Shown here: positions 2,903 to 24,000 of the stretch, one piece after another
Layout of the letters: each line of letters begins with the position of its first letter
Numbering within the stretch: position 1 is the stretch's first letter
Source of the DNA: Bacteroidales bacterium
GTDB taxonomy: Bacteria; Bacteroidota; Bacteroidia; Bacteroidales; JAADJA01
Assembly: GCA_029934735.1 (NCBI GenBank)
Contig: JAOZLR010000001.1
Coordinates: 4,718 to 28,717, forward strand
Direction: 5' to 3'
DNA: 24,000 nt
Notes under the pieces: model-generated
Seen by the model: the letters and a program-made list of their open reading frames with translations, nothing else
Database searches by the model: none
Told to the model about the DNA's origin: nothing
Program-made: the position numbers and the translations under genes

Positions 2903-3574
2903 AACGTACCTCTCAGGAAGATACCCTCTCTCCTTTAATTCCGATGGCTCATTTATTTCTATGCAGTTTTGATCGGTCAGGAGAATTAATCTGTTGCAAA
3001 GTTTCAGTATATTACGATAGTCATGATCAGCTATCATAAAGCATTTTTCATCTTTTTTACTTTCAATGAGCTGGATAATTCGCTCTTTTAGCAACGGTTC
3101 TATCCCTGAGAATGGTTCGTCAAGAAGGATAATTCCGGCGGGATGGTTTACAATAAGCAGTATCTCGAAATAACGCGACTCCCCTGAAGATAGTTCCATT
3201 GGCTTTTTTGTGAGATACTTATTGATTAAAGTGTCCTGCCTAATCTCCTCTTTTATCCTCTGATCTTTGATAAACAGGTCAATGATCTTATTTAATGAAA
3301 TATTTGCAGGCAGGAAGCTGTTCTCTGGAAGATATGCAACGAGGTTTCCTTTTTGAAATGGTTTGTCAATAATTTCGTTGTTAATTCGCAGATGCTTGAA
3401 TTGAGGTGTAACTGTCCCGAAAATAATTTTCAACAATGTACTTTTTCCACTTCCGTTTCTTCCGAGTACACCTGTAATATCTCCAATCTTACAATTAAAA
3501 TACACATTCGACAGGATTCTCCGGTTGCCGTATGAGTGTGTCAGACTATCTATTTCGAGTGCACTATATGGCAT
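2900..3574 (-). CDS. ABC transporter ATP-binding protein
   Basis: Walker A GRNGSGKSTLL, signature-like LSSGESR, Walker B IILLDEPFSGIEP, H-loop region ADHD. 224 aa. Confidence 0.88.
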   Translation of the reverse strand: MPYSALEIDSLTHSYGNRRILSNVYFNCKIGDITGVLGRNGSGKSTLLKIIFGTVTPQFKHLRINNEIIDKPFQKGNLVAYLPENSFLPANISLNKIIDLFIKDQRIKEEIRQDTLINKYLTKKPMELSSGESRYFEILLIVNHPAGIILLDEPFSGIEPLLKERIIQLIESKKDEKCFMIADHDYRNILKLCNRLILLTDQNCIEINEPSELKERGYLPERYV

Positions 3575-3887
3575 TGATAATGATTATTAGAATATAAACA
3601 GCAAGTACAACAGGCAAATTGAACAACCAGGCAGCACTAATAAGCTGGATTTTAGTCAGACCGAGGTTATAGTAAAAATAGAAACGTTTGCGATATTTTA
3701 AAAAGTAAAAATAGATTGCAAATAAAAAACCGCCTGTAAACAAAGAAAAAGAAAAGACCGAGAAAAAACCTGTAAGAGAGCCAGTTGGTGAATTGCCTGC
3801 AAATAATCCAAAAAAACCAATAGTAACTGAAATTATCAGGTTAAATCTGAATATCTCTTTTGAAAAGTTAAGTGCAGGCCTAAACAT
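3564..3887 (-). CDS. Small polytopic membrane protein, translationally coupled to the ABC ATPase
   Basis: 107 aa with 3-4 hydrophobic segments. It overlaps the downstream ATPase start by 11 nt (3564-3574). I recognise no family. Confidence 0.6.
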   Translation of the reverse strand: MFRPALNFSKEIFRFNLIISVTIGFFGLFAGNSPTGSLTGFFSVFSFSLFTGGFLFAIYFYFLKYRKRFYFYYNLGLTKIQLISAAWLFNLPVVLAVYILIIIINAI

Positions 3888-3919
3888 TATATCTTATAAA
3901 TATGGTAAATGGCCATATT

Positions 3920-4453
3920 CTATTTTGTCGGAATTTTTGCAAGAACAGGAAATCTTTGCTGCGCAAGATAGAAAGCTCCAAAGAACAGGGTATTATAAAA
4001 AAGATCACCGAGAACACCATTATTCAGGAATGGCAATCCTGCTGTGTAACTCTCAAGTAGTCCTGCAAAATTCTGAGGATAAAACGGACTTCCAATCCAC
4101 ACTGCAAAGTTTGTAATTACAAAGAACAGAACTGATGAACTTACAGAAGCAAGCAGCAGTGACCCAATCTTAACCCGGTTTTTTAACATCATCCCGAATA
4201 CTACAATAATTGCAAAGCTAAGGTAAACAGCTATCATATATGAATGGAAACCAAGGAGCATATCCGAAATAAACAGGGCTGCCATTGGTATTAAGAAAGC
4301 CAGATATTTCTTGTTAAAATAAGTACCTCCAAAAAGGGCCATTGCAGCTATAGGAGTGAAATTAGGCCAGTGGGGGATAAGCCTGAAAGCAGCACCAGCA
4401 ATAATGACTGTAAGAATAAATAAGAATCTGGGGTTTAATGTCTTGTTGTTCAT
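3920..4453 (-). CDS. Polytopic membrane protein, DUF6580-like (putative transport protein)
   Basis: 177 aa. The N-terminal RLIPHWPNFTPIAAMALFGGTYF motif is as I recall it for the DUF6580 family. About 5 TM segments. Candidate TACTTTTG boxes lie on the minus strand at 4482-4489 and 4520-4527. Confidence 0.65.
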   Translation of the reverse strand: MNNKTLNPRFLFILTVIIAGAAFRLIPHWPNFTPIAAMALFGGTYFNKKYLAFLIPMAALFISDMLLGFHSYMIAVYLSFAIIVVFGMMLKNRVKIGSLLLASVSSSVLFFVITNFAVWIGSPFYPQNFAGLLESYTAGLPFLNNGVLGDLFYNTLFFGAFYLAQQRFPVLAKIPTK

Positions 4454-4533: not shown

Positions 4534-5745
4534 TCAATTATCTACAAAGTTCTCATCTCCATATATTGCGAGACCGCCAAGAGCTGTTTCCCTATATAAA
4601 CTCGGGATATCTTTTCCAGTTTCTTTCATTACTTTTGTAACAACATCAAAGCTTATAAAGTGCTTGCCATCAGACAGAATAGAGAACCGTGCTGAATCGA
4701 ATGCTCTTACAGCACCATGTGCATTTCTTTCGATGCAGGGTATCTGGACCAATCCGTTTATTGGGTCGCAGGTTAAGCCGAGATGATGTTCTAACCCCAT
4801 TTCAGCAGCATATTCTATTTGAGAGGGAGAGCCACCGGCCAACTGTGTTGCTGCAGCTGCTGCCATAGCGCAAGCTGTACCAACTTCTCCCTGGCATCCA
4901 ACTTCGGCACCTGAAATTGAAGCATTTTGTTTTACAATATTCCCGATTAACCCTGCGGTTGCCATCGCCCTGATAATTTTATCATCACTAATCTCAAAAT
5001 GCTCCTGGCTTATTTTTAATACAGCAGGTAATATTCCCGACGAACCACAAGTAGGAGCAGTAACTACTTCTCCTCCTGAGGCATTCTCTTCGGATACAGC
5101 AAGTGCGTATGCAAAGATTTTACTGATAGTCCTGGAGTGATCACGCAAACCCTTTGATTTTGAATAATAGGAGGCTGCTTTCCTTTGTAGTTTTAATCCC
5201 CCGGGAATAAGTCCTTCGTTTGTAATTCCATTGGATATAGCCTTCTTCATTACTTCCCAAACTTTATGGAGGTAATCTTTTATTTCATCCCCTTCGGTTT
5301 CAAATACAAGTTCCCAAAATGTTTTACCAGTCTCTTTGTAATAGTTTAAAACATCCTGCATGTTTTTTTGGCTATAAATGTTTGTTGGTTTTGAGTTTTT
5401 GTTTTTATCGTCAACAATTTTTCCGCCTCCAACACTATACACCAACCATTTGTCGGGTTCACTGTTTTTGTCTGCTACTTCAAATTCTAAGGCGTTTGGA
5501 TGAAAATCCTTAGCTTCATCCTTTTTCCAGATAATTTCAACATTTGCAGGTTCTAATTCATTTATTATTGCAATATCAGTCAGATGTCCTTTTCCTGTTA
5601 ATGCTAAGCTGCCATATAAAGTAACTTTAAACGATTTTGCTTTCGGATGTTTGCTTTTATATTGTTGGGCAGCTCTGTCCGGACCCATTGTGTGACTACT
5701 TGAAGGGCCTCTTCCAATTCGAAATAATTCTTTTATTGATTCCAT
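4534..5745 (-). CDS. sdaA: L-serine ammonia-lyase (iron-sulfur-dependent L-serine dehydratase, single-chain form)
   Basis: N-terminus MESIKELFRIGRGPSSSHTMGP is diagnostic. Cys-containing segments TAPTCGSSG, GCQGEVGTACAMAA and LTCDPINGLVQIPCIERN match the Fe-S serine dehydratase family. Confidence 0.93.
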   Translation of the reverse strand: MESIKELFRIGRGPSSSHTMGPDRAAQQYKSKHPKAKSFKVTLYGSLALTGKGHLTDIAIINELEPANVEIIWKKDEAKDFHPNALEFEVADKNSEPDKWLVYSVGGGKIVDDKNKNSKPTNIYSQKNMQDVLNYYKETGKTFWELVFETEGDEIKDYLHKVWEVMKKAISNGITNEGLIPGGLKLQRKAASYYSKSKGLRDHSRTISKIFAYALAVSEENASGGEVVTAPTCGSSGILPAVLKISQEHFEISDDKIIRAMATAGLIGNIVKQNASISGAEVGCQGEVGTACAMAAAAATQLAGGSPSQIEYAAEMGLEHHLGLTCDPINGLVQIPCIERNAHGAVRAFDSARFSILSDGKHFISFDVVTKVMKETGKDIPSLYRETALGGLAIYGDENFVDN

Positions 5746-5758
5746 TTTCTATAACTTA

Positions 5759-6847
5759 TTATTTTAGTTTCGGGTGTATTTTTATTATATCCTGTATCAA
5801 ATATTCTATTGGCTCTCTTCTGTTTTTCGAAATTTTTCTATTGTCTGCATTGATTATAATAACCATATCCAGCTCAGGAATAATGTTTATTATCTGTCCA
5901 CCATTTCCAGGAATAAACCAAGCATTAAATCCATACTCTGTTTTTACCATCTGCCACTGGTAACAACTATAAAAAGGATGGTGAATTTCAATATATGGGC
6001 TAAATATTTCTTCTATCCATTTTTCTGATACAATTTCATTTTCGTTCCATTTTCCCTTATTCAAATGTAAAAGTCCATATTTGGCAATGTCTCTTGATTT
6101 TAGTTTTAATCCGCCACCACTATCATAAACTCCATTTTTTTCAAACCAGTCATATTCTTTTATGCCAAGAGGTTTAAAAAGATATTCTTCTGCAAATTCT
6201 GCAATATTTTTACCAGTTGTCTTTTTTATAATTTCGCTTAAAATAATATTGTTAGGTCCACTATACACATATTTTGTTCCGGGAGCTGTATCCATAGGTA
6301 GCATTATTGCTGATTTTAACCAGTCATTTGTTAAATCCATTTGTCTGCCCATATTATTTGGGTCAGTAAGAGGTAAAGATTGCTCATCCCATTGAAAACC
6401 CGAGGTCATCGTCAACAAATCTTTAATGGTTATTTTATTTTTCAGTGTGTCTTTTTTTAGATTTTTATATTCAGGGAAGAAATCTAACATTTTTTGGTCA
6501 ACGCTTTTAATATACCCTTGTTCTATTGCAACACCAATCAATAAGGAATTAAAACTTTTTGTATTAGATGCCAAAAAATGCAGTCTGTCCTTTTTCCATC
6601 CATTGTAATATTGCTCTATCACCAAGTCGTTATTTTCAATCACCAGTAAACTATGTATATTTCCATATTTGCCATTACAAATGTCTTTATTTAATTTGCT
6701 GAATCTGACTGTATCCAACTTGTTCTCTTCAAGTGTAGAAACATTCAGTCCATCATTAATATCATTTGGTTTCTGATAGGAACAATTATCTTTTGTATTG
6801 CAACCTACTAAACCTAAAATAATCAAAATGCTTATAATATTTTTCAT
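5759..6847 (-). CDS. Serine hydrolase / beta-lactamase-family lipoprotein
   Basis: SxxK motif in LASNTKSF. The ORF-track start (6943) overlaps the upstream gene. The internal Met at 6847 gives a lipoprotein signal peptide, MKNIISILIILGLVGC, and sits 1 nt after the upstream stop codon. Confidence 0.85.
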   Translation of the reverse strand: MKNIISILIILGLVGCNTKDNCSYQKPNDINDGLNVSTLEENKLDTVRFSKLNKDICNGKYGNIHSLLVIENNDLVIEQYYNGWKKDRLHFLASNTKSFNSLLIGVAIEQGYIKSVDQKMLDFFPEYKNLKKDTLKNKITIKDLLTMTSGFQWDEQSLPLTDPNNMGRQMDLTNDWLKSAIMLPMDTAPGTKYVYSGPNNIILSEIIKKTTGKNIAEFAEEYLFKPLGIKEYDWFEKNGVYDSGGGLKLKSRDIAKYGLLHLNKGKWNENEIVSEKWIEEIFSPYIEIHHPFYSCYQWQMVKTEYGFNAWFIPGNGGQIINIIPELDMVIIINADNRKISKNRREPIEYLIQDIIKIHPKLK

Positions 6848-6848
6848 A

Positions 6849-7304
6849 TTACTTGCTGTTATTTTTAACTGATACTTGAAGCGAAGAAGATATTTTTTCT
6901 GCTTTATTGAGGATATAATCTTTTTCTCCTGACATAAGTTCAATATTTCTATCAGGTAAAGTCAAAAAGAGTTTGTAAACGTCATTAGTTTCGGTTCTGC
7001 TTATAGAAAGTACGCTCATATTTTGTGTTTCTCTTGTTTTTACTATTTGAAGATTAATTGTTGACTTTATACTCACCCAGTCTCCTTTCTTAATTGCAAA
7101 AAAACCGATATATCTTTTTAACCTTCTATTGTCAGTATCTATTATTATCCCTGATTTAATAAATAGAAATAGCAGTGATAATACGAAAAATAATATCCCG
7201 TTCCAATCTAAAACTATCATTCTCCAAATACCGATAACGAATAACATTATTCCTAAATAAATGAAATTTTGTGGAAGGGTGCCTGTTTTGTAATTCAATA
7301 TCAT
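6849..7304 (-). CDS. Hypothetical membrane protein (two N-terminal TM helices plus a soluble domain)
   Basis: 151-aa ORF whose stop abuts the start of the hydrolase gene. A candidate TATTTTTG box lies on the minus strand at 7376-7383. Confidence 0.6.
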   Translation of the reverse strand: MILNYKTGTLPQNFIYLGIMLFVIGIWRMIVLDWNGILFFVLSLLFLFIKSGIIIDTDNRRLKRYIGFFAIKKGDWVSIKSTINLQIVKTRETQNMSVLSISRTETNDVYKLFLTLPDRNIELMSGEKDYILNKAEKISSSLQVSVKNNSK

Positions 7305-7450
7305 TATTCAAAAAATTTTTAAACCAGATTATCTTTTCCAGTTCTTTTTTTATTCACCGTATTATAATTATTGAACAAAAATAAGACTTTTTAAATGATA
7401 ATATGCGAATTTGATAAGCAAATACTATTTAGTACAAATAGTTATTATGT

Positions 7451-7458
7451 TACTTTTG
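7451..7458 (+). promoter_or_regulatory. Candidate -7 box (TACTTTTG) for the MATE transporter gene
   Basis: TAnnTTTG match 27 nt upstream of the ATG at 7486. Confidence 0.4.
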
Positions 7459-7485
7459 CAAGACTTTAGAATTACGGAATTTTAG

Positions 7486-8841
7486 ATGAAAGATTTATCG
7501 GTAGGGAAGGAGAGTAGGTTAATATTGCAGTTTGCTACACCAATGCTGCTTGGCAATGTGTTTCAGCAACTATATAATATTGTTGACACCATCATCATTG
7601 GCAGGTTCATTGGTAAAGAGGCTCTTGCCGCTGTGGGCGCATCATTTCCAATACTGTTTGCTGTAATTTCTTTGGTAATAGGATTTGCAACAGGAGCGAC
7701 AATAATTGTTGCGCAATATTTTGGAGCAAAGCAGATGGAAAAGGTGAAACGGACTATTGACACCTTTTATATTGTTATGTTTTTTGCGTCAATAGTTTTC
7801 AGTGCACTTGGTATCTATTTTAGTGATGATATTTTCCGACTTATCCAGCTCCCGGAAGATGTACTACCATACGCCAGTCTCTATCTTAAGATTTATCTTT
7901 CGGGTCTGGTATTTTTTTTTGGATTTAATGGCACCTCTGCAATACTCCGTGGGCTTGGCGATTCAAAAACACCGCTCTATTTTCTGATAATTTCCACTTT
8001 TGCTAATATCTTTTTCGATCTTCTTTTTGTTGTTGTATTCAAATGGGGAATTGCAGGTGTTGCAATTGGGACTATTATGGCTCAGGGCGGAGCATTTATT
8101 ACAGCCATCATCTATCTTAACAAATATCACAAAGTGGTTAAGTTTTCGCTGAAGAATATGGTGTTCGACAGAGATATCTTTAAGAAGAGTGTCAGAATAG
8201 GCCTTCCTTCAGGTTTGCAACAATCCTTTGTAGCGCTTGGTCTTATGGCTTTAATCTGGATTGTCAATCTTTTCGGTACAGATACGATAGCAGCTTATTC
8301 TGTTGCCATGCGTATTGACTCAATTGCTATGATGGCTGCAATGAACTTTGCTTCTGCTCTCGCAACTTTTGTTGGACAAAATCTTGGTGCTAATAAACCT
8401 GAAAGGGTGAGATCAGGTTTGATTGCCACACTTAAAATGACTACAATTATTTCGATCACAATATCTATAATTGCAATTTTATTTTCTAAGCAACTTATGG
8501 GCATATTTACAACCGATGAGAATGTAATAGCCATAGGTGCGAGGTATCTTATCATTGTGAGTTCTTTTTATGTTTTGTTTTCAACACTTTTTGTGATTAG
8601 CAGCGTTATGCGTGGTGCTGGCGATACTTTAGTTCCGATGTTTATAACTTTACTTGCATTATGGGTTGTTCGCATTCCGGCTGCCTATTTCCTGTCGAGG
8701 CATTTCGGGGTTGATGGCATCTGGTGGTCAACACCGATGGGCTGGTTTGTTGGCATGACATTCTCATTTATATATTACAAGACAGGCCGCTGGAAAAGGA
8801 AAGCAGTGGTGAAGTATGATGAAGACAAGCTGGTCTTGTAA
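7486..8841 (+). CDS. MATE family efflux transporter
   Basis: 451 aa with about 12 TM segments. The N-terminal pattern LQFATPMLLGNVFQQLYNIVDTIIIGRFIGKEALAAVG is typical of MatE (NorM/DinF-like) proteins. Confidence 0.9.
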   Translation: MKDLSVGKESRLILQFATPMLLGNVFQQLYNIVDTIIIGRFIGKEALAAVGASFPILFAVISLVIGFATGATIIVAQYFGAKQMEKVKRTIDTFYIVMFFASIVFSALGIYFSDDIFRLIQLPEDVLPYASLYLKIYLSGLVFFFGFNGTSAILRGLGDSKTPLYFLIISTFANIFFDLLFVVVFKWGIAGVAIGTIMAQGGAFITAIIYLNKYHKVVKFSLKNMVFDRDIFKKSVRIGLPSGLQQSFVALGLMALIWIVNLFGTDTIAAYSVAMRIDSIAMMAAMNFASALATFVGQNLGANKPERVRSGLIATLKMTTIISITISIIAILFSKQLMGIFTTDENVIAIGARYLIIVSSFYVLFSTLFVISSVMRGAGDTLVPMFITLLALWVVRIPAAYFLSRHFGVDGIWWSTPMGWFVGMTFSFIYYKTGRWKRKAVVKYDEDKLVL

Positions 8842-20299: not shown

Positions 20300-20722
20300 A
20301 TGTCTGACGTACATGACAAAATAACTAGGAGTTATAATATGTCAATGATAAAGGGTAAAGATACAAAACCTGAAATTATTGTAAGGAAATTTTTGTTTCA
20401 GAATGGATTCAGATACAGAATCAATTTTACAAAATTGCCAGGAAAACCTGACATTGTCTTGCCAAAGTACAAAACCGTTATTTTTATTAACGGGTGTTTT
20501 TGGCATGGACATAAAAATTGCAACTATTTTGTAGTTCCAAAAACCAGAACAAAATGGTGGATAGAAAAAATAAACAAAACCAAAGAACGTGATGTTTTGA
20601 TAATGAATGAATTGAAAAAACTCGGATGGAGAATATTTGTTATATGGGAATGTGAATTAAAAAGGGTAAAAAGAGATAAAATTTTTGAAAAATTATTACT
20701 ATTTTTGAAAAAATTAAACTGA
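20300..20722 (+). CDS. vsr: Very short patch repair endonuclease (T:G mismatch-specific)
   Basis: TRSYNMSMIKGKDTKPE...GKPDIVLPKYKTVIFINGCFWHGHKNC...WW..KI..TKERD are the Vsr family motifs. 140 aa. Its stop overlaps the dcm start (TGATG). Confidence 0.92.
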   Translation: MSDVHDKITRSYNMSMIKGKDTKPEIIVRKFLFQNGFRYRINFTKLPGKPDIVLPKYKTVIFINGCFWHGHKNCNYFVVPKTRTKWWIEKINKTKERDVLIMNELKKLGWRIFVIWECELKRVKRDKIFEKLLLFLKKLN

Positions 20723-21897
20723 TGAATTTTATCGATTTGTTTTCAGGTGGTGGAGGCTTGTCTGAAGGCTTTGTCCGACAGGGATTTAAGCCTGTTGCTC
20801 ACGTTGAAACAGACAGGGCATCATGCAATACTATATTAACCAGAATCGCATATTATTATTTATCAGAAACCGGTAATAATGAGGTATATATTCAATATCT
20901 GAAGAGGCAAATAACTCGAAATGAATTGTATGAATATCTTCCTGACAGTCTAAAAATGTCCATAATTAATAAACCTATTGGAAAAGAAAGTAATAGGGAG
21001 ATATTCAGACGGATAAATGATGTGAAAGGGACTAAAAAAATTGATTTGATTATCGGAGGACCTCCTTGTCAGGCGTACTCTCTTGTTGGCAGAGCAAGAG
21101 ATGCATATAGTATGAAGTATGATGAAAGAAATTACCTTTATGTTCAGTATGCTGAATTCCTTAAAAAGTTTGAACCTGAATTCTTTATTTTTGAAAATGT
21201 TTCAGGTATGCTTTCTGCTAGAACCTCTGGCGGGGAAAAATACCTTGAAAAAATGATCAGGTTGTTTCGTGAGGTTGGATATGAGACTGAGTATGAATTA
21301 TTAAATGCTAAAGATTTTGGGGTTTTACAAAATAGAAAAAGAGTTATTCTAATTGGTAAAAAAGGAACTAAAAAAGGTTTTTATCCAAATTTCAAAAAGA
21401 AAGACTCAAAAGTTAATGTCGAAGAAATATTTAAAGGATTACCTAAATTAAAAGCAGGAGAAGGTAATTTTTTTGAAACAAAGTACACAAAAGATACTTC
21501 CGAATACCTAAAAGAAATTAAAGTTCAAAACGGTTTAGATTTTACAACACAACACATTGCAAGACCACATAATGAGCAAGATAAAGAAATATATCGAATT
21601 GCAATAAATAAATGGAATGAAAATGGAGAACGTTTAAATTATAACGATTTACCTGATAGATTAAAATCCCATAAAAATAGAAATTCTTTTACTGACAGAT
21701 TTAAAGTTGTTGCAGAAGAATTACCTGCTTGTCATACTGTTGTAGCACATATAGCAAAGGATGGACATTATTATATCCACCCAGATATTAAACAAAATCG
21801 TTCAATAACACCGAGAGAAGCAGCTAGATTACAATCATTTCCTGATGATTATTTCTTTGAAGGTCAAAATGACAAGCCTAGTAGAACTGCTGCATAA
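20722..21897 (+). CDS. dcm: DNA (cytosine-5)-methyltransferase, apparently truncated at the C-terminus (motifs I-IX present, motif X absent); possibly a pseudogene
   Basis: Motif I DLFSGGGGLSEGF, IV GGPPCQAYS, VI FENVSGM, VIII QNRKRV, IX RSITPREAARLQSFPDDYFF. The ORF stops at ...SRTAA-TAA, and no GNAVP-like motif X follows in any forward frame. Confidence 0.85.
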   Translation: MNFIDLFSGGGGLSEGFVRQGFKPVAHVETDRASCNTILTRIAYYYLSETGNNEVYIQYLKRQITRNELYEYLPDSLKMSIINKPIGKESNREIFRRINDVKGTKKIDLIIGGPPCQAYSLVGRARDAYSMKYDERNYLYVQYAEFLKKFEPEFFIFENVSGMLSARTSGGEKYLEKMIRLFREVGYETEYELLNAKDFGVLQNRKRVILIGKKGTKKGFYPNFKKKDSKVNVEEIFKGLPKLKAGEGNFFETKYTKDTSEYLKEIKVQNGLDFTTQHIARPHNEQDKEIYRIAINKWNENGERLNYNDLPDRLKSHKNRNSFTDRFKVVAEELPACHTVVAHIAKDGHYYIHPDIKQNRSITPREAARLQSFPDDYFFEGQNDKPSRTAA

Positions 21898-21908
21898 AAA
21901 ATAACATT

Positions 21909-22238
21909 ATGAATACTATTACTAAAACAGAGATTGACGCTTATAAAGAACTAAAAAAACAATATACAAATATTGTAAACACTAGCATTCTTGAAAATTG
22001 TAATAAAATAGTTCAAATTGGTGCATATACTGCTGAAATTGACAAGAATAATATTGTTACTCTTTCTCGAAATAAGTTCCCTTCTCAGTTTACTGAAAAA
22101 TCAGCAAATGATATTGTAAATATGAACTGGACTTCATCCAATAATAAAAAGGCAAATATTGAGATTTATAATATTAAAGATTGGTATAGAGGAAAAATAG
22201 AAGCATTAAATTTCATTATTAAAAACTATAATAATTAA
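21909..22238 (+). CDS. Hypothetical 109-aa protein (orf109), translationally coupled to the HNH nuclease gene
   Basis: Uninterrupted ORF in a dense operon. It starts 11 nt after the dcm stop and ends 1 nt before the HNH start. No TM segment, signal peptide or motif that I recognise. Confidence 0.55.
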   Translation: MNTITKTEIDAYKELKKQYTNIVNTSILENCNKIVQIGAYTAEIDKNNIVTLSRNKFPSQFTEKSANDIVNMNWTSSNNKKANIEIYNIKDWYRGKIEALNFIIKNYNN

Positions 22239-22239
22239 T

Positions 22240-23010
22240 ATGCAGAGACGTAATTGGACAAAAGATGAACTAATTCTTGCTTTTTCTTTATACCTTAAAC
22301 TTCCTTTTGGAAAAATGCATAGAAATAATCCAGATATTATTTATTTATCTAAAATAATAAATAGAACACCTAGTGCTGTCGCAATGCGTCTATCTAATTT
22401 TGCTAGTTTAGATCCATTTCATCAACAAAGAGGAGTAAAAGGTTTAACAGGAGGAATATCTATTTGTAAACCAATTTGGGATGAATTCATAGGTAATAGA
22501 GAGGATTTATTATATAAAAGTGAAAATATTTTAGCAAAGAAAGAAAATACAGATATAGAACTAAAATATTCGGATATTTTAAAAGATACTCAAAATTTAA
22601 AAGGTGAAATAAAAGAGCGTATTGTAAAGACAAGAGTTAATCAATCTGTTTTCAGAAAAATTATTTTATCTACATATACTCAAAAATGTGCAATAAGTGG
22701 AATTGATATTCCTCAATTATTAGTAGCAAGTCATATTATCCCGTGGTCTAAAAGCGAAAAAGAAAGATTAAATCCTTCAAATGGTATATGTTTATCATCA
22801 TTATATGACAAAGCATTTGATATTGGCTTAATAGGAATAAAAAAGGATTATACAGTGATATTATCCAATAAAATAAAGGATAAGTCAAAAATGGATTATT
22901 ATAATACTTATTTCAAGAATATAGAAAATCAAAAAATATTATTGCCAGAAAGGTATCAGCCTGATTTGAATTTTTTAGAATATCATTTAGATACCATTTT
23001 TCAAAAGTAA
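22240..23010 (+). CDS. HNH-family nuclease of the predicted-restriction-endonuclease type (COG3183 / HNH_2-like) with an N-terminal SANT/Myb-like helical domain
   Basis: RVNQSVFRKIILSTYTQKCAISGIDIPQLLVASHIIPWS...NPSNGICLSSLYDKAFDIGLIGI matches the HNH_2 beta-beta-alpha-Me pattern (catalytic His in ASHI; Asn in NG). The N-terminus is NWTKDELILAFSLY...RTPSAVAMRLSNFASLDP. Confidence 0.8.
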   Translation: MQRRNWTKDELILAFSLYLKLPFGKMHRNNPDIIYLSKIINRTPSAVAMRLSNFASLDPFHQQRGVKGLTGGISICKPIWDEFIGNREDLLYKSENILAKKENTDIELKYSDILKDTQNLKGEIKERIVKTRVNQSVFRKIILSTYTQKCAISGIDIPQLLVASHIIPWSKSEKERLNPSNGICLSSLYDKAFDIGLIGIKKDYTVILSNKIKDKSKMDYYNTYFKNIENQKILLPERYQPDLNFLEYHLDTIFQK

Positions 23011-23049
23011 ATTGTCAGAAAAACAAAAGGACGTTGGGACAGGCGAGGA

Positions 23050-24000
23050 ATGGTTGTTGGAAATGTTCAATCAGGTAAAACAGCAAATTATACAGGACTT
23101 ATTAATAAAGCAACTGATGCAGGATATAAATTAATAATTGTAATTGCTGGAATTCACAATAGTTTAAGGGCTCAAACTCAAAGTAGAATAGATGAGGGCT
23201 TTATTGGTAGAGATAGTTCTGATTTCATTTTAAGACAACGAAATATTAAAACTGGAGTCGGACATATTAAAGCTGAAACAGAAATATATTCTTTTACTTC
23301 TTCTGATGCAAAAGGTGACTTCAATAGAAATATAGCAACTAGAATTAATGTTCCTATTGGTGGACAAAGTCCTACCGTTTTAGTTATTAAAAAGAATAAA
23401 AGTATATTAGAAAATTTAATTTTATGGTTACATCAGTTTGCCATTGACAATGGAAATGGTGAGAATAAAATATTTGATGTTCCTCTATTGTTAATTGATG
23501 ATGAAGCGGATAACGCTTCTGTAAACTCAGGGACTGAATTAGATGTTAAAACCATTAACCGATTAATAAGAACTCTATTAAACTTATTTAATCAAAATAC
23601 TTTTATAGGATATACGGCAACCCCATACGCTAATATTTTTATTCCATCTTCCTGGAGTAAAAATCTGGAAACAATGGTAAAAGATATCAAACTTAAAGTG
23701 GGTGAAGACCTATTCCCTCGGGACTTTATCGTAAATATCCCTCCTCCCTCCAATTATATTGGAGCTGTTCAGGTTTTTGGATTTGAAAATGAAGAAACTG
23801 GTGAAGAACACGAAGGTTTAGATATTATAAGATTAGCCGAAGACCAAGAACCATTATTCCCGAAAAAAATAAATAAATATAATAAAGATGAATTACCTGA
23901 AGATGTTCCTTCTTCTTTGAAAACAGCAATTAAATCGTTTATCTTAACTTGTGCAATCAGGCGATTAAGAGGACAGGAAACGAAGCATAATTCTATGCTT
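23050..24000 (+). CDS. Z1-domain family SF2 helicase-like P-loop ATPase (partial; runs off the right edge; the N-terminal region appears to be missing)
   Basis: Manual translation in the same frame as the HNH ORF, open from 23011 to 24000: IVRKTKGRWDRRGMVVGNVQSGKTANYTGLINKATDAGYKLIIVIAGIHNSLRAQTQSRIDEGF...LLLIDDEADNAS...GYTATPYANIF...ILTCAIRRLRGQETKHNSML. Walker A is at 23059-23082 and DDEAD at 23497-23511. The first ATG is at 23050. Confidence 0.8.
   Translation, partial: MVVGNVQSGKTANYTGLINKATDAGYKLIIVIAGIHNSLRAQTQSRIDEGFIGRDSSDFILRQRNIKTGVGHIKAETEIYSFTSSDAKGDFNRNIATRINVPIGGQSPTVLVIKKNKSILENLILWLHQFAIDNGNGENKIFDVPLLLIDDEADNASVNSGTELDVKTINRLIRTLLNLFNQNTFIGYTATPYANIFIPSSWSKNLETMVKDIKLKVGEDLFPRDFIVNIPPPSNYIGAVQVFGFENEETGEEHEGLDIIRLAEDQEPLFPKKINKYNKDELPEDVPSSLKTAIKSFILTCAIRRLRGQETKHNSML

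Follow-up and report, generated by a model that had tools for sequence, protein, structure and literature searches.

What kind of system is encoded where the genes of a DNA methylase, a nuclease and a fragment of an Mza motor protein follow one another on the same strand, almost without spacers? This question is raised by positions 20300-24000 of a 24,000-nt stretch of the Bacteroidales bacterium contig JAOZLR010000001.1 (hereafter the window), where genes for a very-short-patch repair endonuclease (vsr) and a C5-cytosine methyltransferase (dcm) precede a small open reading frame (ORF) of unassigned family (orf109), an HNH nuclease gene and part of mzaC. A previous interpretation, made from the letters alone (the sequence-only reading), had called it a mosaic defence locus and had offered two alternatives, a functional hybrid or a locus caught in a cassette exchange. 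We compared the window with other loci and contigs, designated by L-numbers, and the mosaic character is supported. We consider it rather probable that, as a whole, the locus reflects a mobile HNH cassette that replaced the stretch from the end of dcm to the start of mzaC and thereby disabled both Dcm and Mza.

A two-gene cassette in place of the dcm-mzaC junction

Cytosine methylase and Mza genes together make up an anti-phage locus of five genes that was known before. The intact locus L006 carries, in this order, dcm (415 aa) and the genes for MzaB (494 aa), MzaC (926 aa), MzaD (329 aa) and MzaE (790 aa), the last four assigned by PADLOC; MzaB is a GHKL/MutL-type ATPase and MzaE an AIPR protein. 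In a blastn comparison, L006 positions 202-1411 aligned with 20686-21895 of the window and 3330-4311 with 23019-24000, and no homology to L006 was found in the window between 21895 and 23019. The segment from the 3' end of dcm to the 5' end of mzaC has been replaced by a cassette of two genes, orf109 and the HNH gene (Table 1). Junction alignments with L006 show that its 1123 bp stand in place of 1918 bp of the canonical locus, namely the last 24 codons of dcm (FKQIGNAVPPLMAEEIASEIKKIL, corresponding to motif X and the terminal helix), the whole of mzaB and the first ~121 codons of mzaC. The window ends at 24000 inside mzaC, and the positions where mzaD and mzaE would follow lie beyond it.

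The sequence-only reading had placed the HNH gene and orf109 in the slot of a GHKL ATPase gene, and that gene is indeed found there, as mzaB upstream of mzaC, in 75 of 78 related genomic loci. One of the three exceptions is a contig edge, and the other two (L052 and L071) have a homologue of the window HNH gene instead of mzaB. Compared with Mza, the window therefore differs in four respects: mzaB is missing, so that MzaC is not adjoined by the MutL/GHKL-type ATPase that Mza requires; mzaC is short by ~121 N-terminal residues; dcm is without motif X; and a foreign two-gene cassette fills the gap.

An assembly chimera of unrelated fragments could in principle give the same picture, as the source is metagenome-like and one matching contig (L001) has an N-gap and an unrelated end. 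However, L001, from a separate data set, is base-identical to window positions 21194-23332 and spans both cassette junctions, and L084, from another data set, is base-identical over dcm-orf109-HNH. Since the contigs of two other data sets are identical to the window at the junctions, we take the locus to be real and no assembly artefact; the architecture is, moreover, common to diverged loci, and a chimera is extremely improbable. The anomalies of the 2.3-kb contig L001, a 142-nt unrelated end (1-142) and 10 N inside the orf109 homologue (1083-1092), are scaffold joins of that assembly and not biology.

State of the methylase and of the Mza genes

The vsr gene encodes a full-length Vsr (TIGR00632 matched over 1-119 of 119, with 142.9 bits against a cut-off of 97.85). 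The downstream dcm keeps motifs I (FSGGGG, 20740), IV (PPCQ, 21061), VI (ENV, 21193), VIII (QNRKR, 21328) and IX (21814-21852, REAARLQSFPDDY), and lacks motif X (QIGNAVPP, with its GNAVP core) and the C-terminal helix. The frame stops 24 codons early and the protein ends with ...FPDDYFFEGQNDKPSRTAA-stop (...SRTAA-stop), while the intact dcm of L006 runs on past this point as ...TAAFKQIGNAVPPLMAEEIASEIKKIL (FKQIGNAVPP...). Profile matches end short in the same way, at 390 of 422 for PADLOC DrmMII (from position 5) and at 300 of 324 for Pfam PF00145. In C5-methylases of the M.HhaI type, motif X is part of the pocket for the cofactor S-adenosylmethionine (AdoMet). Because this part of the pocket is lost, the window Dcm is probably catalytically dead. 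We considered orf109 as a separately encoded motif X of a split methylase, given a shared 'QIG', and rejected the idea: the invariant GN is missing, orf109 matches no methylase profile, and a second, unrelated family of small ORFs fills the same slot elsewhere.

Traces of vsr are found in other loci. L006 has no detectable vsr, yet its positions 202-237 match window positions 20686-20721, the 36 nt at the 3' end of vsr, just upstream of dcm; either a relic of vsr or truncation at the contig edge could account for them. In L102, L105, L121, L122, L125 and L143, tblastn matches that adjoin HNH homologues cover no more than the first ~30 residues of Vsr (64-73% identity), and a similar insertion may have cut vsr genes short at these places.

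The mzaC remnant matches the NCBIfam model from position 126 of 806 and the PADLOC model from position 132 of 952, and L006 MzaC has 121 additional N-terminal residues. From residue 122 of L006 MzaC onwards, 323 of 327 aligned residues are identical. These 4 amino-acid changes in 327 codons correspond to a ratio of nonsynonymous to synonymous divergence (dN/dS) of 0.014, a low value that can stem from a recent intact state and is therefore no evidence that the truncated gene works. The sole candidate start of the remnant lies five codons before the P-loop. With the ATPase lost, together with the N-terminal domain and the natural start of the motor MzaC, the gene content indicates that Mza is probably disabled in the window. 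At 23008-23013 the HNH gene and the mzaC remnant lie in one frame with a single stop codon between them, and likewise in L095 (1282-1287); as this is not so in L091, L090 and L003, the shared frame is probably due to chance.

The locus also differs from a known system with a PLD + B3 R subunit and a 632-aa H subunit. Its nuclease is an HNH_2 protein with a helical N-terminal domain, its motor is a truncated MzaC from the Mza lineage, and no solved chain was matched by sequence.

The HNH protein and its genomic neighbours

The HNH protein comprises an all-helical N-terminal domain (residues ~1-110), a linker helix and a C-terminal HNH_2 domain, with the His in ASHIIPW encoded at 22726-22746. 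It matches the PADLOC model PDLC04132 over its full length (1.8e-93) and belongs to a family of >5400 members, almost all of 255-259 aa, that is rare in phages (9 of 50,697 records). His165 and Asn181 are invariant in 31 homologues, and a dN/dS of 0.08 indicates strong purifying selection.

The C-terminal half matches modification-dependent enzymes only: VcaM4I in sequence (phmmer to PDB 6yex, 1.4e-11) and fold, TagI in fold, and the phosphorothioate-dependent family weakly (NCBIfam PT-DNA_restrict against residues 84-255, 62 bits, below the cut-off of 180); 6yex (VcaM4I) and 6ghs (TagI) were the only Foldseek matches. These relationships suggest that the protein is probably a stand-alone, modification-dependent nuclease. 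It resembles the type IV enzymes VcaM4I, TagI and the phosphorothioate-dependent SBD-HNH proteins in joining a non-catalytic N-terminal domain to a linker helix and an HNH_2 module in a single chain. Unlike in these enzymes, the N-terminus is helical and not an EVE, SRA or SBD domain, and the gene often adjoins C5-methylase genes.

For the N-terminal ~110 residues, all-helical by high-confidence prediction, we found no solved structure and no Pfam match. Neither Pfam nor structure comparison revealed a modified-base reader (SRA, EVE, PUA, SBD or DUF3427) at this end of the protein, and a word-indexed search with the domain returned same-family fragments only. An exhaustive search showed that the domain is almost confined to the 256-aa HNH architecture. 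The exception is a few proteins of 335-354 aa (P0222, P0280 and P0313), in which it is fused to MTaX1 (PF20296, 'methylase-associated X1') without an HNH domain. MTaX1 has been proposed to discriminate modified DNA (PMC10853773).

To place the nuclease in its genomic context, we surveyed 80 metagenome loci with HNH homologues. By far the commonest family among the immediate neighbours is the C5-methylase (11 of 64 upstream and 5 of 60 downstream neighbours). In about three quarters of the loci no DNA methylase lies beside the HNH homologue, and many homologues are found among housekeeping genes. A truncated dcm lies directly upstream of the HNH homologue in at least 14 loci, and in 12 loci the abutting dcm is cut before or in motif X. 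A rule that a small ORF accompanies a truncated dcm and its absence an intact one was tried and abandoned, being broken by L158, L167, L134 and L123, which have a truncated dcm and no small ORF. In L103, L135 and L139, HNH homologues lie 0.1-1.6 kb from SauUSI-like genes, which suggests small clusters of type IV-like nucleases.

These data bear on a simpler view of the locus as an ordinary type II restriction-modification (R-M) system, in which dcm, the HNH gene and vsr would supply methylase, restriction enzyme and repair nuclease, orf109 a controller, and the dead Mza remnant would be a chance neighbour. Such a view would account for the full-length match to the PADLOC model 'HNH, type II restriction enzyme' (1.9e-40), for the C5-methylase as the commonest single neighbour family and for the existence of pairs of intact dcm and HNH genes. 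However, an intact cognate methyltransferase is absent from the window, and since its Dcm lacks motif X, an active cognate endonuclease would be lethal. Besides, most HNH homologues have no methylase neighbour, and HNH proteins 50-68% identical to one another stand beside methylases that share only 25-30%, unlike co-evolving specificity pairs; orf109 carries no helix-turn-helix or controller-protein signature. We therefore regard a type II system as quite improbable.

The small upstream proteins and a second nuclease

orf109 matches nothing in Pfam, NCBIfam or PADLOC, and no relatives were found in JGI metagenome contigs or in viral contigs. Its family amounts to only 7 clusters among 5.8 billion. 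The dN/dS against L003 is 0.21. The predicted fold (helix, 3-4 strands, helix, strand, helix; AlphaFold pLDDT 90) has no match in PDB, and its Foldseek matches are uncharacterised phage proteins of 110-134 aa.

Two of the orf109 clusters (86% and 69% identical) directly precede not an HNH gene but that of a 1044-aa protein with PLD-nuclease, SF2-helicase and DUF3427 domains. This protein has the SauUSI architecture and matches the PADLOC model mREase_IV (type IV methyl-directed restriction enzyme) at 1e-230. Such pairs occur in L085 (4658-8937), L086, L087 (10001-13564) and L088, flanked by dcm, mzaC or mzaE fragments: in L085 and L086 dcm residues 340-381 are followed by the cassette and then by mzaC residues 647-834, and in L087 the cassette is followed by the last 26 codons of mzaE and by lpxD. 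The SauUSI-type enzyme of L085-L088 thus holds the same slot behind an orf109 homologue, within Mza debris, whereas the window has no such enzyme and its HNH protein is unrelated to SauUSI in sequence. Judged by these gene neighbourhoods, orf109 is one small protein paired with two unrelated nucleases.

The converse is also seen: HNH homologues are preceded, at a distance of 0-37 nt, by small ORFs (~70-115 aa) of at least six unrelated families, among them one with a zinc ribbon (CPHCG...), one marked by 'KFKFRLLDGDRNIYFEGL' and one by 'YGPTSYETQVAILS'. Loci with such ORFs are L100, L107, L108, L109, L110, L126, L137, L143, L151, L090, L091, L093 and L095. We speculate that orf109 and the other small upstream ORFs encode exchangeable regulatory or immunity partners.

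Recurrence and movement of the cassette

Relatives of the cassette are found in L003 and L004, where the HNH protein is 90% and the orf109 homologue 80% identical to those of the window. Their right junction is that of the window to the nucleotide and is followed by 57 nt of mzaC (codons 122-140), after which only the final 76 codons of mzaE remain; on the left, ten more codons of dcm are retained before the junction. Between the window and L003, synonymous divergence (dS) is ~0.5 in the cassette and 1.25 in the flanking dcm. Next to the cassette, the window is 97% identical to intact L006 over the first 400 nt of mzaC (10 differences, dS 0.12, 0 amino-acid changes) and over much of the last ~600 nt of dcm, most of which reaches 91-97%; in the outer flanks identity is only 65-89%. 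Taken at face value, these divergences describe a junction that is old and flanks that are young, in a mosaic with the cassette at its centre. Homologous recombination with co-conversion tracts would give this pattern if it had carried the cassette and its stubs into a locus that was intact before.

Further loci extend this picture. In L091 and L095, a dcm ending in ...NRTAA-stop is followed by an unrelated 84-aa ORF, the HNH gene and mzaC from residue ~113, and L091 also has mzaD and mzaE; L090 has a similar architecture, and many further partial versions were found in the 80-locus survey. Depending on the locus, right junctions fall at mzaC residues ~96, ~113, 122, 131, 242, 353, 416 or 647, or at mzaE residues 15, 715 or 765, so that downstream Mza genes are seen to erode in several lineages. 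Several left junctions preserve a tail of an earlier host, for example that of L093 (...FKQIGNA|QKPYRNAA-stop), where the host GNA is followed by QKPYRNAA. By the evidence of these junctions, the cassette behaves as a unit that moves between dcm-linked loci by recombination and carries short stubs of earlier hosts; of the two alternatives in the sequence-only reading, the breakpoints thus show the cassette exchange. In L091, the truncated dcm is immediately preceded by a second, diverged HNH_2-like stretch (4046-4414), which shares 33% identity with residues 133-254.

A related arrangement was found outside the Bacteroidota. Between pheS and pheT of Neisseria gonorrhoeae (L169:4965-6756, NZ_CP119142.1), vsr is followed by a dcm that breaks off shortly before motif IV, by a small ORF (~82 aa) and by the gene of a 249-aa HNH protein, 39% identical to that of the window over its full length. 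The record is filed as a plasmid but measures 2.17 Mb, and the pheS-pheT stretch is unannotated in it. In N. meningitidis, a Vsr-containing 5-methylcytosine (m5C) restriction-modification system has been described at pheS-pheT (PMC7973814). The window resembles this hotspot (NmeDI, or NmeBI with Vsr) in the combination of vsr, truncated dcm, small ORF and HNH gene; it differs in that dcm is there cut before motif IV and not before X, Mza genes are absent and the small ORF is of a different family. R.NmeDI was set aside as a characterised relative: it has 351 aa, and no link is claimed.

Most left junctions, at least ten of them distinct, are confined to the last ~45 codons of dcm, across three dcm families that are 25-57% identical to one another. 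Such a distribution might betray a selfish, homing-type element whose HNH nuclease cuts intact dcm/Mza alleles near motifs IX-X and is copied in by break repair, since left junctions would then concentrate at the dcm 3' end even where the dcm genes differ widely. The tails of earlier hosts within the cassette ('...AA-stop', and the QKPYRNAA of L093) and the old junction between young flanks would suit such an element as well. However, at least 10 left and at least 11 right junction positions were counted, and the single defined target nucleotide that marks homing is not seen; in L052 the cut in dcm falls as early as residue 45, and in N. gonorrhoeae it lies ahead of motif IV. A non-HNH nuclease can occupy the same slot, and the HNH family is very large, with members of uniform length that are under strong purifying selection, mostly lie far from any dcm and are rare in phages. 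Illegitimate recombination anchored by homology would likewise be expected to cluster junctions at the dcm 3' end, and so would a need to remove the restriction genes just downstream of dcm. Homing thus appears improbable.

The other alternative of the sequence-only reading, a functional hybrid in which the truncated dcm and mzaC are maintained with the cassette as a working system, is unlikely but remains a live minority rival. In its favour, L091, L095 and L090 repeat the order of the window with HNH proteins 62-67% and Dcm proteins 56-77% identical; their dcm breaks off where that of the window does or close by, and their mzaC begins at residues ~113-135. Between L091 and L095, dN/dS is 0.011 for the dcm tail and 0.04 for the mzaC start (dS 0.7-1.8), and the few changes in the window mzaC fragment relative to L006 point the same way. 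On the other side, L090, L091 and L095 have no ATG, GTG or TTG before the P-loop, and junctions vary by locus and grade into large deletions (L003, L071, L093, L116, L085, L098 and L087). The variant loci form no clade, the flanks of the window are nearest to an intact locus, from which a low dN/dS may be inherited, and an unrelated type IV enzyme also takes the position of the cassette. The sequence-only reading had granted that the truncations could be normal for the family if homologous loci routinely had the same order with proteins of the same lengths. Loci with this order and similar truncations exist (L090, L091 and L095), but they are a minority form, and the truncations are therefore not family-normal.

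Several observations nevertheless weigh against a replacement that disabled both Dcm and Mza in favour of a modification-dependent nuclease. Two of them fit the hybrid: the truncated dcm tail shows only 3 changes in 81 codons between L091 and L095, which have both junction positions in common (dN/dS 0.011, with near-saturated dS), and L090 and L091 retain open mzaC remnants of ~800 codons in addition to mzaD and mzaE. The all-helical N-terminal domain of the HNH protein, with neither a PUA, SRA or EVE reader nor a solved-structure match, speaks against it as well. Finally, at least nine loci have a seemingly intact dcm directly next to a full-length HNH homologue, upstream in L130, L150, L098 and L071 and downstream in L102, L119, L121, L152 and L156. 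This arrangement is hard to square with an m5C-dependent enzyme, except where methylase and nuclease differ in specificity. Differing sequence contexts have been argued for DUF3427 enzymes next to C5-methylases (PMC6765204) and could reconcile an intact dcm with the HNH nuclease.

Composition and surroundings of the locus

The five co-directional frames (Table 1) had been correctly delimited in the sequence-only reading, as had the overlap of the vsr stop with the dcm ATG in TGATG (20720-20724) and the spacers of 11 nt between dcm and orf109 and 1 nt between orf109 and the HNH gene; its assignments to Vsr, DNA_methylase and HNH_2 hold at the E-values of Table 1. Its by-eye impression of A+T-richness was confirmed by computation, the G+C content being 0.295 for 20300-24000 and 0.369 for 1-20134. 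Within the locus the lowest values are those of orf109 (0.239) and the HNH gene (0.259).

Table 1. Positions and assignments of the genes and of the cassette in the window
Feature	Position	Strand	Size and evidence
vsr (very-short-patch repair endonuclease)	20300-20722	+	140 aa, full length; PF03852 2.9e-33
dcm (C5-cytosine methyltransferase), 3'-truncated	20722-21897	+	391 aa vs 415 aa; DNA_methylase PF00145 1e-51
Inserted cassette (orf109 + HNH)	21896-23018	+	1123 bp; blastn vs intact L006
orf109, small partner protein	21909-22238	+	no family matched
HNH nuclease	22240-23010	+	256 aa; HNH_2 PF13391 1.9e-12
mzaC remnant	23019-24000	+	MzaC models and L006 MzaC alignment

The remaining window is ordinary Bacteroidota chromosome, with kdsA, ligA, a MatE transporter and a protein with a type IX secretion system (T9SS) tail. 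Scans for promoter-like (31 vs 26.9 ± 5.2 in shuffled sequence) and terminator-like signals (5 vs 1.9 ± 1.7) gave counts not clearly above expectation and allow no word on operon structure. A 183-aa ORF at 2247-2798 on the reverse strand contains an IS200-like Y1 transposase domain (PF01797, 4.8e-07), and in L005 a Y1_Tnp gene lies ~4 kb from the solitary HNH gene. A second patch of low G+C (0.26-0.33) at 5501-7500, with a beta-lactamase-family ORF (5759-6943) and a 151-aa ORF, has no bearing on the cassette finding.

Proposed mechanism and implications

For the replacement of the dcm-mzaC junction, we propose the following course. The cassette would be the selected, working part of the locus, and vsr a leftover. 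The helical N-terminal domain of the HNH protein may read DNA, most likely a modification state, like the type IV enzymes that share the HNH module. Such a nuclease could settle only where the resident cytosine methylase is killed, and the methylase could be killed only together with the restriction effector that depends on it. A single replacement reaching from the end of dcm into the effector genes would kill both. From such a double loss in one step it would follow that left junctions lie near the 3' end of dcm and right junctions are scattered, and homology-anchored illegitimate recombination on the conserved DNA of motifs IX-X would add to the clustering on the left.

As a tentative generalization, which we hold with some doubt, cassettes of a small ORF and a nuclease (HNH with a new all-helical reader, or SauUSI-type) may form a recombination-mobile class of defence elements that specifically displaces m5C-methylase-based systems (type II R-M and Mza). 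They would do so by overwriting a segment that begins at the end of dcm and reaches into the restriction genes, methylase and effector being killed in one step, with orf109 promiscuous between two unrelated nucleases. In the literature searched, we found no description of HNH and small-protein families overwriting m5C-based systems. The novelty lies in the comparison: time and again, from Bacteroidota to Neisseria, the stretch that leads from the methylase into the effector genes is overwritten by members of an HNH family and of a very small family of short proteins.

In genome annotation, loci of this kind should not be scored as intact Mza or R-M systems. The comparison also provides leads: a very large family of ~256-aa HNH proteins with an N-terminal domain that recurs in MTaX1 proteins and for which no fold relative is known; unrelated small proteins that always lie just upstream of the HNH nuclease; and a natural truncation series of Mza that marks dispensable parts of MzaC, MzaD and MzaE. 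If general, the replacement would offer a route from methylation-based self-marking to methylation-targeting defence without self-killing.

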